Positions 3,657 to 14,877 of a stretch of DNA of 52,705 nt are shown piece by piece (position 1 is the first letter of the stretch; every line of letters begins with the position of its first letter). This DNA comes from a virus. Its lineage: Duplodnaviria > Heunggongvirae > Uroviricota > Caudoviricetes. The notes below the pieces were generated by a model that ran no database searches, was not told the DNA's origin, and saw nothing but the letters and a program-made list of their open reading frames with translations. The stretch is taken from IMG/VR virus record IMGVR_UViG_3300035042_000139. The stretch is one strand, 5' to 3'. The translations under genes and the position numbers were made by a program.

Positions 3657-4860
3657 ATGCCGATTATTGTAGGAGGAAATTTTTTAAAAGTTATACCAGA
3701 GGAGGAATTTAAGATGAAATTTAGCGAAGGAGAACCTGTTATGTTTCAAAAAAGAATGAAGGCAACTGTTGTTGCTGTAATTAAGGAGTCTGATAAACCT
3801 TATGGAATTGTCTACACTACCCCAAATAATAAGGACAGAACACTTTTCACAACAGAAGAACACCTGTCTAAAAGGAAAAATGCAACAGAACTTTCCGTGG
3901 GTGACAGGTTTAAAACAAAGAATGAAGACACTTATGAAGTTATATTCATAACAAGGGAAGAATGTAAGAATGAAACTGTATATATTGCCAGAATTATTAA
4001 AAAGCATGGAATAACAGGACCAACTTTAGACTATATTAGAAAAGTATACCCAAATGATGTCTGCCAAATAATATATTAAGGAGTGATTTTATGATTTGTA
4101 GTCTCTGTGGCAAAAGGATAATAACTGATAACTTTGATAAGAAAGAAATGACAATTTGTGATGAGTGCAGAGAGTCTAAGAAAATAAAAAAGTTAAAAAT
4201 TGAAATAAAAAAAGCCAAAGGCCAAAGAAAAGATAATGATTCAAAATGGAGAGAAGGCTATATTGAAGGTCTAACTAAGGCATTAAAAATACTTAAATAA
4301 AAGGAGGATTATTATGTCAATTCAAGAAACACAATTATTAGAAAGTGTTATCATCTCAGGGTTTTGGAATCATTTTGTGACATTCATTTTCTGTTATGCC
4401 CTGACATATCTATTCTGGGTTAAATATTTATTAGGGACAAAGACTAGTCTTAAAAAGATTACCCTAACAATTATAGGTGGGTATTTTATTTATTTAATTG
4501 TATTTGCAGTAATCCTTGTTGGTTATCAAAATATACCACCGATGAGGTCTCTATATTTTAAGACCTATACTACTAGTAGTGCAATACTAATAATAATTTT
4601 GTTACACTACAGAGAAACAAAACAAAAACAAATTTTATTAAAACAAGTATAAAGGAGGTAATATTGTGGGGTATTATTCTAATGAACGCATTTACAGAAT
4701 AAAAGAGTATATGAGACTTTCTGACCGTTCAAGACACAAAACTAAAGATATTGAGGCTGAGAAAGTTGTTGAGGTTGTTAAGGACAATAACAATCAGGAA
4801 TTAGGTAAAGTTATTAGACTTCCGGAAGGCCACTGTCATAACCCGCTTGATGAATTTTAA
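3657..4860 (+). CDS. four hypothetical proteins (3657-4079; 4091-4300 with two CxxC pairs; 4314-4652 membrane protein; 4666-4860)
   Basis: RBS-preceded consecutive ORFs; 4314-4652 has three hydrophobic segments. Confidence 0.7.
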
Positions 4861-9149: not shown

Positions 9150-9216
9150 GAACAAATTTAAAGGGGTTAAAAGGCCATATTTATTATGGCCAGCAATTAT
9201 ATTTATTTTATATTAC

Positions 9217-9245
9217 TTGAAAAGTGGAGTTAAGTGTGGTATAAT
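9217..9245 (+). promoter_or_regulatory. sigmaA-type promoter upstream of the RNA array
   Basis: TTGAAA(9217-9222), 17 bp, TG at 9237-9238, TATAAT(9240-9245); first RNA starts at 9265. Confidence 0.85.
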
Positions 9246-9264
9246 AAACTTAACAGATAAACAA

Positions 9265-9410
9265 GTCATTGGTGGCGGAATAAGTAGACGCTATAATGGT
9301 AAGGCATTCGGTGGGAAACATAATAACCAGAGGGGCATATGCTTATACATTTAAAAGCAGCTTTGCAACATGCGAATGTTCATGTGAGGTGTAAATCCTC
9401 ACCCATGACA
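9265..9410 (+). ncRNA. tRNA-like RNA with a large structured insert replacing the anticodon arm
   Basis: Acceptor GTCATTGG/CCCATGAC (one mismatch), Leu-type D region TGGCGGAATAAGTAGACGC, T arm TGAGG-TGTAAAT-CCTCA (non-TTC loop), insert closed by GGCATTCG/CGAATGTT. Confidence 0.7.
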
Positions 9411-9420
9411 TTATATATAT

Positions 9421-9466
9421 GCCGGTTCGGGAAACTACAGGTTAGTTACCTGCCCTGCCGGCTCCA
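9421..9466 (+). ncRNA. 46-nt hairpin RNA ending in TCCA (minihelix-like)
   Basis: GCCGGT/GCCGGC, GGG/CCC and CAGGT/ACCTG stems, 3' TCCA. Confidence 0.55.
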
Positions 9467-9475
9467 AAATTTAAA

Positions 9476-9560
9476 GGAAGAGTGTCCGAGTGGTTTAAGG
9501 AGACAGTTTGCTAAACTGTTACCGACAGGTTCAGGGGTTCAAATCCCCTCTCTTCCTCCA
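9476..9560 (+). tRNA. tRNA-Ser(GCT)
   Basis: GGAAGAG/CTCTTCC acceptor, ACAGT-TTGCTAA-ACTGT anticodon arm, short variable arm ACC-GACA-GGT, AGGGG-TTCAAAT-CCCCT, encoded CCA; discriminator T is atypical. Confidence 0.9.
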
Positions 9561-9566
9561 TTTTTT

Positions 9567-9681
9567 CGGGAGATAGCTCAGCAGGCTAGAGCAGCTAAAA
9601 TATGTCTTGTATAAGGTATTAACAGCAATCACATCCCATTAAAGGAGCGTGTCGCAGGTTCGAATCCTGCTCTCCCGGTCA
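9567..9681 (+). ncRNA. CAGCAA-motif tRNA-like RNA 1 (Pro-like body)
   Basis: CGGGAGA/TCTCCCG acceptor, intact D and T arms; insert ATGTCTT-GTAT-AAGGTAT-T-AACAGCAA; residual TCC-CATTAAA-GGA. Confidence 0.85.
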
Positions 9682-9687
9682 TTTTTA

Positions 9688-9904
9688 GTCGCAGTGATAG
9701 TTTTTGGCAATTTAAACTATCTTCAAATAAATGCGACAGAATTAAGATTCCTCTACAAAATTGCCAGAGGGCTTAATTCAAAATTAATCTGTCAGCAACA
9801 TGTAAACAGCCTGGCTACAATATTAAAAACAAACTGCCAGGCTTAGGAAATACATGGAAACAACTGCCGAGCTCTGTGGGCTAGCTGTTGCGACGGGTTA
9901 ATTT
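9688..9904 (+). ncRNA. structured ncRNA(s): kissing-hairpin pair plus multi-stem domain
   Basis: GTCGCA/TGCGAC, GATAGTTT/AAACTATC, GAATTAAG/CTTAATTC, CCTCT/AGAGG; loops GGCAATTT and AAATTGCC are complementary; AAATTAATCTGTC/GACGGGTTAATTT encloses AGCCTGGC/GCCAGGCT. Confidence 0.75.
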
Positions 9905-9906
9905 AC

Positions 9907-10025
9907 GGTGAGGTAGCCAAGATGGAAAGGCTCCGGCGCAAAAAGAAAGTGTGACTAGTTTAGTCACCAACAGCAATTCTTCTATGTCAAGCCGGGATTC
10001 GCGGGTTCAACTCCCGTCCTCACCA
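9907..10025 (+). ncRNA. CAGCAA-motif tRNA-like RNA 2 (Asp-like)
   Basis: GGTGAGG/CCTCACC acceptor; anticodon stem CCGGC/GCCGG enclosing GTGACTA-GTT-TAGTCAC-C-AACAGCAA and residual AT-GTC-AA; T arm GCGGG-TTCAACT-CCCGT. Confidence 0.85.
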
Positions 10026-10037
10026 ATTACAATTTTT

Positions 10038-10155
10038 CGAAGGGTAGCTCAACTGGTAGAGCAGCTAAAATATATGCTTAGTTTTAAGCGTTAACAGCAA
10101 TCAATTTTCCTTGAGGAGGAGCTTGCTGCAGGTTCAAATCCTGCCCCTTCGACCA
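10038..10155 (+). ncRNA. CAGCAA-motif tRNA-like RNA 3 (Pro-like body, GAG loop)
   Basis: CGAAGGG/CCCTTCG-A-CCA; insert ATGCTTA-GTTT-TAAGCGT-T-AACAGCAA; residual TCC-TTGAGGA-GGA. Confidence 0.85.
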
Positions 10156-10163
10156 TTTTTTAA

Positions 10164-10286
10164 GGAGAGATTCTCCTAATGGCAAAGGTACCGGCCAAAA
10201 TATGTTTAGATTAAACATCAACAGCAAAAAAAGTGAAAAGCCGGCGGTCGATGACCATGGTGGTTCGAATCCACCACTCTCCACCA
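10164..10286 (+). ncRNA. CAGCAA-motif tRNA-like RNA 4 (Ser-like body)
   Basis: GGAGAG/CTCTCC-A-CCA; CCGGC/GCCGG enclosing ATGTTTA-GAT-TAAACAT-C-AACAGCAA...GTGAAAA; variable arm GGTC-GAT-GACC; T arm GGTGG-TTCGAAT-CCACC. Confidence 0.85.
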
Positions 10287-10323
10287 ACTTTAGGAATTAA
10301 AGATTAATTTTTTGTAATTTTTA

Positions 10324-10402
10324 AAGACGGCACACAGCAACCAAACTATTATATAATAAAAGACGAATAAGGCTGACACTTTTTTATCCCTGAGCCGTCT
10401 TG
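10324..10402 (+). ncRNA. stand-alone CAGCAA stem-loop unit A
   Basis: AAGACGGC-ACA-CAGCAA...GCCGTCTT-G; weak internal AAGG-CTGACAC-TTTT hairpin. Confidence 0.8.
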
Positions 10403-10433
10403 TTATTTAGACTTAGAACTTAGATAGATTACA

Positions 10434-10568
10434 TACTGTCGGACTGACAGGAATTTACGCTTTTGGAGAGAGCATAAGACCTAACTTAATCTGATTAAAT
10501 AATTAGCTTTAAGTAGGCAATTCTCGTTGAAAAAAGAATCCCCGCAGGCTTGCCTCGGGGTAGGTCAA
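10434..10568 (+). mobile_element. orphan IS200/IS605-family right end / TnpB omegaRNA scaffold
   Basis: CTGTC-GGACT-GACAG hairpin, GGAATTTACGCTTTTGGAGA, GAAT directly before subterminal hairpin CCCCGCAGG-CTTG-CCTCGGGG, terminal TCAA; no tnpA/tnpB adjacent. Confidence 0.75.
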
Positions 10569-10684
10569 TAAAGGGCGATATCTTGGTGTCAGTTTATCTT
10601 TATGATTTTGTTCATTATAATATATTCTTTCGAACTTGCCGGTGCTTTTAAACCCGGTTAATTTTGTATAAAGAGGTGTAAAAT

Positions 10685-11506
10685 TTGTTTATAGCAGAGA
10701 TTGGTATTAATCATAATGGAAATTTAGAATATGCATATGATTTAATAGATATGGCTTATAAAGCTGGAGCAGATGTTGTTAAATTCCAGAAAAGAAATCC
10801 AAATAAATGTGTACCTGAAAACCAGTGGTATAAAAAGAAAGAAACACCGTGGGGCAAGATGGATTATATTGACTATAAGCACAAGATGGAGTTTGGTTAT
10901 AGTGAATATACAGCAATTAATGCTTACTGTAAAAAACTTGGGATAAAATGGACTGCAAGTGTTTGGGATGTCCAATCACTTAATTTTATAACTGAATTTG
11001 ATGTGCCTTTTATAAAGATTGCAAGTGCCTCAATCACGAATATGTTACTCCTGGAAGAAATCTGGGAAAAAGACATTCCTGTAGTTATGTCAACTGGAAT
11101 GAGTACAGAAGATGAAGTAGATAGGGCAGTATATACACTAGAAGAATTGGGAAAGAACTTAACAATTTTGCACTGCAACAGTAGTTATCCTGCAGCAGAA
11201 GATGAACTGGATTTAAATGTAATAAAAACTTTAAAAAATAAATATACAAAACATAAAATAGGCTACAGTGGACATGAAAGAGGAATTCAACCGACAATAG
11301 CAGCTAAAGTTTTAGGAGCTGAGATAATTGAAAGACATATCACTCTAGATAAGGATATGTGGGGCAGCGACCACAGTGCAAGTCTAGAATACAAAGAGCT
11401 AAAAGAGCTTATCGACAATCTTAACAGAGTTGATAACTGGCTCGGGAGTGATAATATTAAAGTTTATGAATCTGAAGAAAAAGTAAAAGAAAAACTTAGA
11501 AAATAA
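10685..11506 (+). CDS. N-acetylneuraminate synthase family protein (NeuB/SpsE), TIM barrel only
   Basis: IAEIGINHNG, ADVVKFQKR, IKIASA, MSTGMST, LHCNSSYP, GYSGHE, IERHITLD..MWGSDHSASLE; lacks the C-terminal SAF/AFP domain. Confidence 0.93.
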   Translation: MFIAEIGINHNGNLEYAYDLIDMAYKAGADVVKFQKRNPNKCVPENQWYKKKETPWGKMDYIDYKHKMEFGYSEYTAINAYCKKLGIKWTASVWDVQSLNFITEFDVPFIKIASASITNMLLLEEIWEKDIPVVMSTGMSTEDEVDRAVYTLEELGKNLTILHCNSSYPAAEDELDLNVIKTLKNKYTKHKIGYSGHERGIQPTIAAKVLGAEIIERHITLDKDMWGSDHSASLEYKELKELIDNLNRVDNWLGSDNIKVYESEEKVKEKLRK

Positions 11507-11514
11507 AAATCTTA

Positions 11515-11579
11515 AAGGCGCCAACAGCAAACTTACTAAATCAAACTTCCAATTTGAATCCAATAGTAATGGTGCCTTG
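11515..11579 (+). ncRNA. stand-alone CAGCAA stem-loop unit B carrying a Gly(TCC)-type anticodon stem-loop
   Basis: AAGGCGCC-AA-CAGCAA...GGTGCCTT-G; internal TTACTA/TAGTAA enclosing TCAAA-CTTCCAA-TTTGA. Confidence 0.85.
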
Positions 11580-11586
11580 TATATAT

Positions 11587-11716
11587 GGCAGTATAGCTCA
11601 ACTGGTAGAGAGCTCAAAAGTTAACGGGCATAGGCCGGCGGGCCCTTACAGCAAACTACAACTAACAATTCTATGTCAAAGAAAAGACGCAGGTTCAAAT
11701 CCTGCTGCTGCCACCA
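11587..11716 (+). ncRNA. CAGCAA-motif tRNA-like RNA 5 (GTC loop)
   Basis: GGCAGTA/TGCTGCC-A-CCA, D region TAGCTCAACTGGTAGAG, insert GGGC..GCCC-TTA-CAGCAA, TTCT-ATGTCAA-AGAA, T arm GCAGG-TTCAAAT-CCTGC. Confidence 0.85.
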
Positions 11717-11758
11717 TTAGCCGGCTTTAATTTACTAACCAACACTCCTTTCAAATTA

Positions 11759-11827
11759 AAGACAGATGCAGCAACCAATTCTTATATCAAGGTATGATAA
11801 AACCCGCGAAATGCGGATACTGTCTTG
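11759..11827 (+). ncRNA. stand-alone CAGCAA stem-loop unit C
   Basis: AAGACAG-ATG-CAGCAA...CTGTCTT-G; internal TATCA/TGATA and CCGC/GCGG hairpins. Confidence 0.8.
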
Positions 11828-11850
11828 TAGTAAAGTCTTAGGAAAATTTT

Positions 11851-11906
11851 TAGGCACAATCAGCAATCAAATCAAGGACTGTAAATCCAACAAAATATGT
11901 GCCTAG
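11851..11906 (+). ncRNA. stand-alone CAGCAA stem-loop unit D carrying a Tyr(GTA)-type anticodon stem-loop
   Basis: TAGGCACA-AT-CAGCAA...TGTGCCTA-G; internal GGA-CTGTAAA-TCC. Confidence 0.85.
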
Positions 11907-11933
11907 TATAAAAATAAAAGGGGGATTATTAAT

Positions 11934-13959: not shown

Positions 13960-14877
13960 ATGGATAAAGATAAGTTAGAGGAATTAAGAGAATACAATAA
14001 AATTTATATTTTAGGCAGTAGTAGCAATCAAGAAATTACAGATTATAAAGAGGATGAAATTGTAATTGAAGAAAAAATTGACGGCAGTAACTTCAGGTTC
14101 TGGAGAGAAGGAGATAGGATTGTATATAGTTCACGGAAAACTGAGGATGTCAGACCTCGTGATGGATGGGGCAAACAGATTGAATACCTAAATGAAAAGC
14201 TTGATGTAAATGCTCTTGGCAGAGATATTATTTATGTCGGAGAGGCAATGAAAAAACACATAGTAAATTATGATTTTGATAATTACCCATCATTTATAGG
14301 GTTTGACCTTCTGGATAAAGAAACTGGGATGCCACTTGATTATAAGGTTGCCAGAGATACTTTTGAAAGTTTGGGTTTAGAATTTGTAAATATCTTATTT
14401 GAGGGAACAATGGAAGAATATCTTGAGATGGACAAAGATAAACTTTTAGAAATTTCTAAGTACAATTCAAAAAAGCCTGAAGGTTATGTTATTAAAAACT
14501 ACAGCAGGTTAAGCCAGTACGATGAGCCTCTATTTGCCAAAGTTTTAAATGATGAGTATTTGGAAAGACAAAAAGCTAAAGCTAAAAAGCCAAAGCCTAA
14601 AGAAACAGACACTCCTTTAGCAGTTGAGCTTTATGTAAATGAGGCGAGAATTAAAAAGATGATAGCTAAAATGGTTGTTGATGAAGGACATAAACTTGAA
14701 AGAACGCTAATGCATAAGCTTATCCCGAGAGTTATCAAGGATTTTTTAAGAGAAAATATTCTTGAAATCTATGAGGATAATAGAATAAAAGATGTAAACT
14801 TTAATATTCTACACAAAGAAGTTCCAAAAAGATGTATTAAAGTTTTGGATAAGATGATTGAAAGTAATGCATTCTAA
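13960..14877 (+). CDS. ATP-dependent RNA ligase (Rnl2-like nucleotidyltransferase)
   Basis: Motif I EEKIDGSN, Ia YSSRK, III YVGE, IIIa FIGFD, IV PEGYVIK, V FAK. Confidence 0.85.
   Translation: MDKDKLEELREYNKIYILGSSSNQEITDYKEDEIVIEEKIDGSNFRFWREGDRIVYSSRKTEDVRPRDGWGKQIEYLNEKLDVNALGRDIIYVGEAMKKHIVNYDFDNYPSFIGFDLLDKETGMPLDYKVARDTFESLGLEFVNILFEGTMEEYLEMDKDKLLEISKYNSKKPEGYVIKNYSRLSQYDEPLFAKVLNDEYLERQKAKAKKPKPKETDTPLAVELYVNEARIKKMIAKMVVDEGHKLERTLMHKLIPRVIKDFLRENILEIYEDNRIKDVNFNILHKEVPKRCIKVLDKMIESNAF

Follow-up and report, generated by a model that had tools for sequence, protein, structure and literature searches.

Which RNA structure accompanies the hexamer CAGCAA upstream of a DUF2828 gene in a tailed phage, and why is it found both at the ends of small RNAs and inside tRNA genes? 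The question is raised by the IMG/VR virus record IMGVR_UViG_3300035042_000139 (Caudoviricetes), a stretch of 52,705 nucleotides (nt) that is called the window here. The window is phage-like, with small open reading frames located on nearly always the same strand and a G+C content of 32%. Positions 9200–11930 form a non-coding array, which ends 28 nt upstream of the start of the DUF2828 gene and contains one normal tRNA-Ser, five tRNA-like genes (E1–E5), and four small stand-alone units (SA–SD). The window contains 54 copies of CAGCAA, compared with 26 expected, and 11 of the 12 plus-strand copies between positions 9191 and 11866 are inside the array. The helix adjoining this box, referred to as the handle, is built in two circularly permuted forms, and it is probably the docking site of the Ro60-like protein encoded by the DUF2828 gene.

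Two connectivities of the handle in the window

The initial annotation had described the handle in two circularly permuted topologies, in four stand-alone and four tRNA-embedded units. Direct reading of the sequence located all eight helices as reported, and all eight form in minimum free energy folds, which bears out the description (Table 1). In both forms, the box-side strand is positioned 2–3 nt upstream of ACAGCAA, and the partner strand is followed by an unpaired G. The partner strand of the stand-alone units is located 35–60 nt downstream, and the helix closes the RNA with its far end open. In E1–E4, the partner strand is immediately upstream, and the far end is capped by a loop of 3–4 nt, the first of which is G. 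The stand-alone and embedded handles are circular permutations of one local structure. The hairpin of E5 is divergent and has only four base pairs (bp).

Rfam and ARAGORN accept E1–E5 as tRNAs only if 33–71 nt of the anticodon arm are skipped. E1, E2, E3, and E5 pass the 29-bit threshold of the tRNA model (RF00005) with 43–47 bits, only with 49–71 nt skipped, and E1–E4 are all called by ARAGORN when introns are allowed. The Rfam search of the array (gathering thresholds and E ≤ 5) returned only tRNAs and weak YrlA matches across tRNA junctions, and no ribozyme, intron, or Class I RNA.

A contig used for comparison with the window, L001, is 96% identical to it. The tRNA stems of E5 remain paired in L001 (positions 4645–4775) through G-C to G-U or U-A and G-U to A-U changes, and the loop AUGUCAA (GUC) is replaced by AUGUAAA (GUA). 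The first of the two cargo hairpins of SC contains a compensatory C-G to G-C change in L001.

Table 1 Handle-bearing units of the array and genes downstream of it in the window
Feature	Positions	Strand	Handle and box (positions)	Cargo, or anticodon arm after deletion of the insert	Evidence
SA, stand-alone unit	10324–10402	+	AAGACGGC 10324–10331, CAGCAA 10335–10340, GCCGTCTT 10394–10401, G 10402		8-bp terminal helix; sequence, fold, script
SB, stand-alone unit	11515–11579	+	AAGGCGCC 11515–11522, box 11525–11530, GGTGCCTT 11571–11578, G 11579	hairpin UCAAA-CUUCCAA-UUUGA, anticodon-like loop (UCC)	sequence; fold z-score −3.3, 0/200 shuffles; script
SC, stand-alone unit	11759–11827	+	AAGACAG 11759–11765, box 11769–11774, CTGTCTT 11820–11826, G 11827	two hairpins	sequence; fold
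SD, stand-alone unit	11851–11906	+	TAGGCACA 11851–11858, box 11861–11866, TGTGCCTA 11898–11905, G 11906	GGA-CUGUAAA-UCC, anticodon-like loop (GUA)	sequence; fold z-score −2.6; script
E1, tRNA-like gene	9567–9680	+	ATGTCTT 9602–9608, loop GTAT, AAGGTAT 9613–9619, ACAGCAA 9622–9628	GCUCC-CAUUAAA-GGAGC; insert in 5′ strand of anticodon stem	sequence; Rfam tRNA 43.7 bits with 49-nt insertion; fold; ARAGORN with introns allowed
E2, tRNA-like gene	9907–10025	+	GTGACTA 9951–9957, loop GTT, TAGTCAC 9961–9967, CAGCAA 9971–9976	CCGGC-AUGUCAA-GCCGG (Asp GUC), without 46-nt insert	sequence; Rfam tRNA 44.3 bits; fold z-score −3.8; ARAGORN tRNA-Asp(gtc), 46-nt intron at 31/32
E3, tRNA-like gene	10038–10152	+	ATGCTTA 10074–10080, loop GTTT, TAAGCGT 10085–10091, box 10095–10100	GCUCC-UUGAGGA-GGAGC	sequence; Rfam tRNA 47.4 bits; fold z-score −3.7
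E4, tRNA-like gene, long variable arm	10164–10286	+	ATGTTTA 10202–10208, loop GAT, TAAACAT 10212–10218, box 10222–10227	CCGGC-CUGAAAA-GCCGG (GAA)	sequence; ARAGORN tRNA-Phe(gaa), 37-nt intron; missed by Rfam
E5, tRNA-like gene	11587–11713	+	GGCC-GGCG-GGCC 11633–11644, then TT-ACAGCAA, box 11649–11654	anticodon-like hairpin UUCU-AUGUCAA-AGAA	Rfam tRNA 43.2 bits with 71-nt insertion
DUF2828+DUF7788 protein gene, 501 aa	11934–13439	+			Pfam
PF09414 RNA ligase gene	13960–14877	+			Pfam 5.8e-21; two genes downstream of DUF2828 gene

Both forms recur beside DUF2828 genes

The embedded form was sought in IMG/VR with the pattern TAGAGC-N(20–50)-ACAGCAA-N(12–42)-GGTTCRANTCC, which combines a tRNA D stem, the box, and a T loop, and leaves the hairpin unspecified. 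At least 114 viral stretches match this hairpin-free pattern, and chance matches are estimated at only few. About three quarters of the matches listed have a hairpin of 7–8 bp with a G-first loop positioned 2–3 nt before the box. A DUF2828 homologue is present in 80 of the 114 matches listed, though many of the stretches are only a few kilobases long. The identities of these homologues (35–47%) make it unlikely that the loci, at least 114 in number, are near-copies of one phage. A scan with the AAAATAT flank specific to the window was dropped; its matches were nearly all due to chance, with seven weak hairpins in 119 stretches.

One embedded unit has already been annotated, as a 110-nt tRNA-Undet located just after the DUF2828 gene of Synechococcus phage B23 (L244, 5863–5972). 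It contains the hairpin ATATCTA-GTT-TAGATAT, and its restored anticodon arm is ACGGC-AUUCGGA-GCCGU. The box of the B23 unit is ACTGCAA, indicating that an A-to-U change is tolerated at the third position.

The hairpin covaries. In an alignment of 89 embedded units chosen irrespective of pairing, 75.8% of the cells are paired in a fixed 7-bp register, compared with 50.7% after shuffling (0/500), and pairing falls to 34–47% when the partners are slid. Double changes are present at all seven pairs, with a covariation score of 0.657 versus 0.247.

Homologues of the DUF2828 protein are encoded in 711 phage records. The open form was followed in seven distant DUF2828 neighbourhoods, those of Bacillus phages FADO and Tsamsa, Listeria phage A511, Salmonella phage FO1a, Mycobacterium phage Samty, Campylobacter phage NCTC12673, and one IMG/VR contig, the DUF2828 protein of which is 26% identical. 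All 24 intergenic CAGCAA boxes that adjoin the DUF2828 gene on the same strand have the open form, with a helix of 7–9 bp, a spacer of 1–4 nt, and a G after the 3′ strand; one ambiguous Tsamsa box was excluded from this count. The sequences of the handle helices vary between the seven phages, yet complementarity is kept, and the far ends include AAG/CUU, UAG/CUA, AGG/CCU, AGA/UCU, UGG/CCA, and AUG/CAU. The arrays comprise up to nine units with bodies that imitate anticodon stem-loops. In addition, FADO, Tsamsa, FO1a, Samty, and the IMG/VR contig each contain one unit with a T arm, a closed acceptor stem, and a D arm.

Further elements are present in Tsamsa, A511, and a Vibrio phage. The unannotated gap between tRNA-Thr and tRNA-Ser in Tsamsa (L005, 3990–4075) contains GCTAGT-CTTGAAA-ACTAGT-GGT-CAGCAA followed by the T-arm-like GGTTCGAGTCC, and may be a degenerate embedded unit. 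In A511, a match to the ROOL RNA (L004, 3504–4055; 87.5 bits, gathering score 99.1) is positioned between the tRNA array and the CAGCAA units with the DUF2828 gene. The 5′ leader of the DUF2828 gene of Vibrio phage ValKK3 contains AAAGACATTTTA-CAGCAA about 25 nt before the start codon (L008, 4950–4992), and no RNA array was seen in this phage. It is possible that this leader serves as an autoregulation site in the protein's own mRNA.

Features common to hairpin and closing helices

A helix of 7–8 bp and a spacer of 2–3 nt ending in A are common to 95 distinct hairpin units and 151 distinct closing units. Of the 95 hairpin units, 73 have a G after the partner strand, as do 91 of 167 closing helices that were scored without a G filter, and the base after that G is most commonly U. 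The linker before the partner strand is rich in A (51% in hairpin and 46% in closing units, compared with a background of 31%), and the box-side strand reads, from the far end, roughly W-W-G-A-C-A-C in both. With the window excluded, the cosine between the base-pair profiles of the two forms is 0.90 in register, whereas it is 0.51–0.67 with the profiles shifted, 0.44 with the strands swapped, and 0.56 with the polarity reversed. The initial annotation's proposal of the same local structure with its open end moved therefore holds: the two forms agree in the length of the helix, in the spacer, in having G after the partner strand, and in the base-pair profile at each position.

Such structures are more frequent at the box than at control sequences. 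When 12 letter-permutations of CAGCAA were used as control anchors in the same, related loci, 4.4% had a neighbouring hairpin, compared with 14.8% for CAGCAA; for an adjoining hairpin with a G-first loop the values were 1.5% and 10.4%, and for a closing helix followed by G 6.4% and 15.7%. The far-end triplet is common to the hairpin and closing units of one locus in 43% (28 distinct signatures), as opposed to 16% after shuffling. The far end had been annotated as WAG/CTWG, which is correct only for the lineage of the window and for Bacillus phages; the general rule is a strand ending in ...Y-N-U and then G(U). Among the embedded units of the window, E3 and E4 depart from WAG and have TAA/TTA.

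Anticodon stem-loops attached to the handle

Of 97 distinct embedded units, 81 regain a perfect 5-bp anticodon stem with a 7-nt loop once the insert is deleted. The restored loops have U33 (69/81), a purine at position 37 (79/81), and A38 (75/81). The insert begins after nucleotide 29 in 37 units, after 28 in 33, and after 31 in nine, and the anticodon arm resumes mostly 8–9 nt after the box. A hairpin with a 7-nt loop, U33, and R37 is also present in 58 of 95 small stand-alone bodies, compared with 21 in shuffles; in the stand-alone bodies it starts most often 9–11 nt after the box. Since an anticodon-like stem-loop belongs to both forms, the common module consists of the handle, the box, about 8–11 nt, and the anticodon stem-loop. 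The embedded form corresponds to a permuted stand-alone form grafted into a tRNA, whose own anticodon arm serves as the stem-loop.

The DUF2828 protein is predicted to fold as Ro60

The DUF2828 protein is composed of a Ro60/TROVE-like ring and a vWA domain with a DxSGS MIDAS (metal ion-dependent adhesion site) motif, the columns of which are invariant across the alignment of homologues. A search of its sequence against PDB chains returned nothing, and the relation to Ro60 was seen by comparison of folds. The AlphaFold (AF2) model, calculated from 22 homologues with a predicted local distance difference test (pLDDT) score of 79.9, has Ro60/TROVE structures as its top 13 matches in the PDB, all over the full length and with E-values of 1e-7 to 9e-5. 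They include the Ro60 of Thermus phage phiLo, Deinococcus Rsr, and Xenopus and human Ro60; vWA/MIDAS domains are next in the list. The model thus indicates that the DUF2828 protein folds as Ro60. The literature search on DUF2828 returned only unrelated plant and tardigrade papers.

Ro60-type proteins of two phages are described in the literature. The phiLo Ro60 binds two Y-like RNAs with a stem and CGAA (Yrl1 and Yrl2), encoded upstream of its gene, and recruits the host polynucleotide phosphorylase (PNPase) (PMC12135203). In the Felix-O1-like phage Bas63, the gene for the Ro60-like gp130 is immediately upstream of tRNA genes, and its product acts against the Ppl defence; the authors offered only a guess as to the RNA partner of gp130 (PMC11482910).

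Relationship to Y RNAs and Class I RNAs

The handle system works like Ro60 with its Y RNAs and is best filed as a variant of that kind. As in Y RNA and YrlA systems (RF02553; Chen et al. 2014, PMC4201824), a ring-shaped protein with a vWA domain is accompanied by small RNAs whose genes adjoin its own and have the same orientation. The stand-alone units likewise pair their 5′ and 3′ ends into a stem, after which a short single-stranded box is conserved on the 5′ strand, and the one tRNA-like unit per phage corresponds to the YrlA body with its variable (V) arm, T arm, closed acceptor stem, and D arm. The differences are that the protein belongs to the DUF2828/DUF7788 branch instead of Pfam TROVE, that the box is ACAGCAA and not GNCGAA/CGAA, and that the arrays, unlike Y RNAs, have bodies resembling anticodon stem-loops. 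In the window, the YrlA model gave two matches that cross tRNA junctions, with 24.7 and 17.5 bits, and the Samty unit scored 37.9 bits, all below the threshold of 69. The embedded units, in which the stem is a local hairpin inside a complete tRNA, have a form that was not found described for any Y RNA.

The embedded form was also considered as a permutation of the whole YrlA-like unit. This was rejected because many loci hold both embedded units and a YrlA-like permuted tRNA unit, and because what follows the embedded box is the anticodon loop instead of the variable and T arms. What is permuted is the module formed by the handle, the box, and the anticodon stem-loop.

The Class I RNAs of dictyostelids (RF01414) have a 6-bp terminal stem that is conserved in structure and not in sequence, starts with AAG, and ends with CUGU; the 11-nt motif beside its 5′ strand has conserved C6, C9, A10, and A11 and is otherwise variable (Kjellin et al. 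2021, PMC7919456). The handle units have a terminal stem, an AAG start, and an adjacent ACAGCAA. The 3′ end is CUUGU or CUAGU in units of the window and CUGU in those of A511, and the T at motif position 3 is not kept. The best matches of the Class I model in the whole genomes of A511 and FO1a are exactly the stand-alone units, over their full length, with 13–23 bits; the highest score is 23.1 bits in A511, and the relative of the window reaches at most 16.2, compared with a threshold of 41.5. In contrast to the handle units, Class I RNAs are eukaryotic, have their own promoters and a known binder, Rnp1A, and have no reported Ro60-like partner and no known embedded form. No description of the handle RNA or its two topologies was found in Rfam or in the literature searched.

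Probable docking of the Ro60-like protein and alternative explanations

The handle is probably the docking site of the Ro60-like DUF2828 protein in both connectivities. A structure-specific protein site, as argued for in the initial annotation, is supported by the genomic ties of both topologies to DUF2828 genes and by the co-variation of far-end triplets within loci. The site would be composed, in order, of an A-rich linker, a strand ending in ...Y-N-U, an unpaired G(U), the complementary strand, and 2–3 nt ending in A and followed by CAGCAA. It would be used in two ways. In one, the handle would close small RNAs as their terminal stem, in the classical layout of Y RNAs; their body resembles an anticodon stem-loop or, in other phages, is a permuted tRNA as in YrlA. 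In the other, it would be a hairpin within a tRNA that is otherwise complete, inserted into the anticodon stem on the 5′ strand, mostly after nucleotide 28, 29, or 31.

Since the anticodon stem-loop follows the box by about 8–11 nt in both uses, the protein would sit beside the anticodon loop. Because RNA ends are lacking at the handle of the hairpin form, recognition would be independent of free termini, which favours binding to the rim or outer surface over threading through the hole of the ring. The position of the Y RNA stem on Ro60 would also lead one to expect binding to the outer surface of the ring. The far-end G and C-N-U are probably recognition elements, because they are kept both in the loop and at the open end. 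The likeliest purpose that we infer is anti-defence work on tRNA anticodon loops, where the handle RNAs would act against anticodon nucleases as a decoy, a shield, or a platform for repair.

Several points weigh against the docking of the DUF2828 protein. Its link to the handle comes from genomic association, and the box is unlike that of known Ro60 partners, which is GNCGAA/CGAA. The helices scored by script were partly selected for complementarity, and this selection is avoided, for the hairpin form alone, in the set of 89 units used for covariation. The p-values, such as that of about 1e-4 for the far-end triplet match within loci, are rough because the loci are phylogenetically related. 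Embedded anticodons are not depleted among the normal tRNAs of the same locus (18 of 54, compared with 12.4 expected), an overlap that leans only weakly to mimicry over unique decoders. Finally, the exact restoration of the anticodon arm equally suggests an intron.

The embedded inserts could accordingly be short protein-dependent tRNA introns that are marked by the hairpin and box, and are excised with ligation of the exons into functional tRNAs, the stand-alone units being a separate use of the same recognition element. Group I tRNA introns are longer than 200 nt, have a conserved catalytic core, and are located in the anticodon loop; in archaeal bulge-helix-bulge introns, the exon-intron junctions are marked by a pair of 3-nt bulges with a 4-bp helix between them. 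As with these introns, the insertion is in the anticodon arm, and its removal restores a canonical arm, perfectly so in the 81 of 97 units and in E1–E4. A gene for an RNA ligase is located two genes downstream in the window. However, inserts of 33–46 nt are far too short for group I introns, and no bulge-helix-bulge motif is obvious by eye at the E1–E4 junctions, for which no formal search was made. Unlike the known introns, the inserts are usually inside the 5′ strand of the stem and not at 37/38, their insertion point varies (after nucleotide 28, 29, 31, or 32), and they contain a conserved hairpin and box that are common to non-intron RNAs; RNAs that cannot themselves be introns are closed by this module as well. 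The inserts have no linked splicing enzyme, no endonuclease is evident, and a homologue of the PF09414 ligase is present in none of the 114 embedded-unit loci among the matches listed. The lineage of the window already has normal tRNA-Asp(GTC) and tRNA-Tyr(GTA), in addition to tRNAs for Asn, Glu, Thr, and Ser, and embedded anticodons across the loci do not complement the set of normal tRNAs. Moreover, E4 has a Phe anticodon together with a long variable arm. Introns are therefore an unlikely explanation.

It is similarly doubtful that the handle tRNAs are substrates, on which the docked Ro60-like protein would direct removal of the insert or a cut at the loop G. If this were true, they would represent a new class of protein-guided tRNA introns or split tRNAs in phages, and phage tRNAs could be switched on or off during infection or upon the action of anticodon-nuclease defences.

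The initial annotation had also raised cleavage after the conserved G and circularisation by ligation. The G would then be a processing site, with the hairpin loop cut after it to leave split tRNA halves held together by the handle, or with the stand-alone RNAs circularised through ligation of their neighbouring ends. The frequency of the G in hairpin loops and closing helices, the side-by-side ends of the open form, and the ligase nearby in the window are compatible with processing. However, nothing in the sequences requires cleavage or ligation, no self-cleaving ribozyme family was matched in the Rfam search of the window, and the presence of the G both in the closed loop and at the open end is more simply explained by recognition. 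As the first base of a closed loop, the conserved G would suit recognition as well as cleavage. Because the nearby ligase is not conserved, cleavage and circularisation are without support, and a processing site is very unlikely.

Chance A/T-rich hairpins multiplied by paralogous duplication in one phage, with no common function, would suit a genome of 32% G+C in which the four embedded units are paralogues and the bodies of E1 and E3 are near-identical, but such a coincidence is next to impossible to reconcile with the recurrence of both forms in unrelated phages with different sequences and compensatory changes, the matching base-pair profiles, and the linkage to one gene family.

Other features of the locus

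The PF09414 RNA ligase is a local neighbour and no conserved component of the system. A gene of the NeuB family (sialic/pseudaminic acid synthase-like) sits midway within the array, at positions 10685–11506. The NeuB and ligase genes were considered as conserved partners of the handle and rejected, since NeuB homologues are likewise missing from all of the 114 loci.

In the region 2261–3640 of contig L001, directly after unit SA, there is a 1.2-kb insertion, the gene of which is absent from the window. It codes for a 376-residue TnpB (OrfB_IS605, a Cas12f1-like TNB domain, and a helix-turn-helix) and is followed by a stretch that is kept in the window. Because the TnpB gene precedes that stretch in L001, positions 10407–10590 of the window correspond to only the 3′ flank, presumed to be the omega-RNA region, of an IS605-type element.

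Two copies of CAGCAA have atypical surroundings. The one at 9781–9905 is enclosed by an 11-bp helix, AAATTAATCTG/CGGGTTAATTT, with a span of 124 nt and no G after it. At 9186–9196, a GGCCAT...ATGGCC hairpin abuts AGCAA with a spacer of 0. These copies may be divergent units or may be due to chance.

Implications

Ro60 and its Y RNAs constitute a conserved and poorly understood RNA-surveillance system. Phage versions of Ro60 are now tied to counter-defence, as in phiLo, where Ro60 acts with PNPase, and in Bas63, where gp130 acts against Ppl. The large DUF2828 branch gains a concrete candidate RNA ligand, one that is modular and would work without free ends. The embedded units also represent a widespread class of phage tRNAs carrying an insert, which annotation pipelines overlook or call undetermined, as in B23. 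The permutation can be regarded as a natural experiment: it suggests that the far-end G and C-N-U pairs are recognised and are not by-products of end processing, and that the particle would hold an anticodon loop. The likeness of the handle units to the Class I RNAs of dictyostelids may point to the missing partner of those RNAs.

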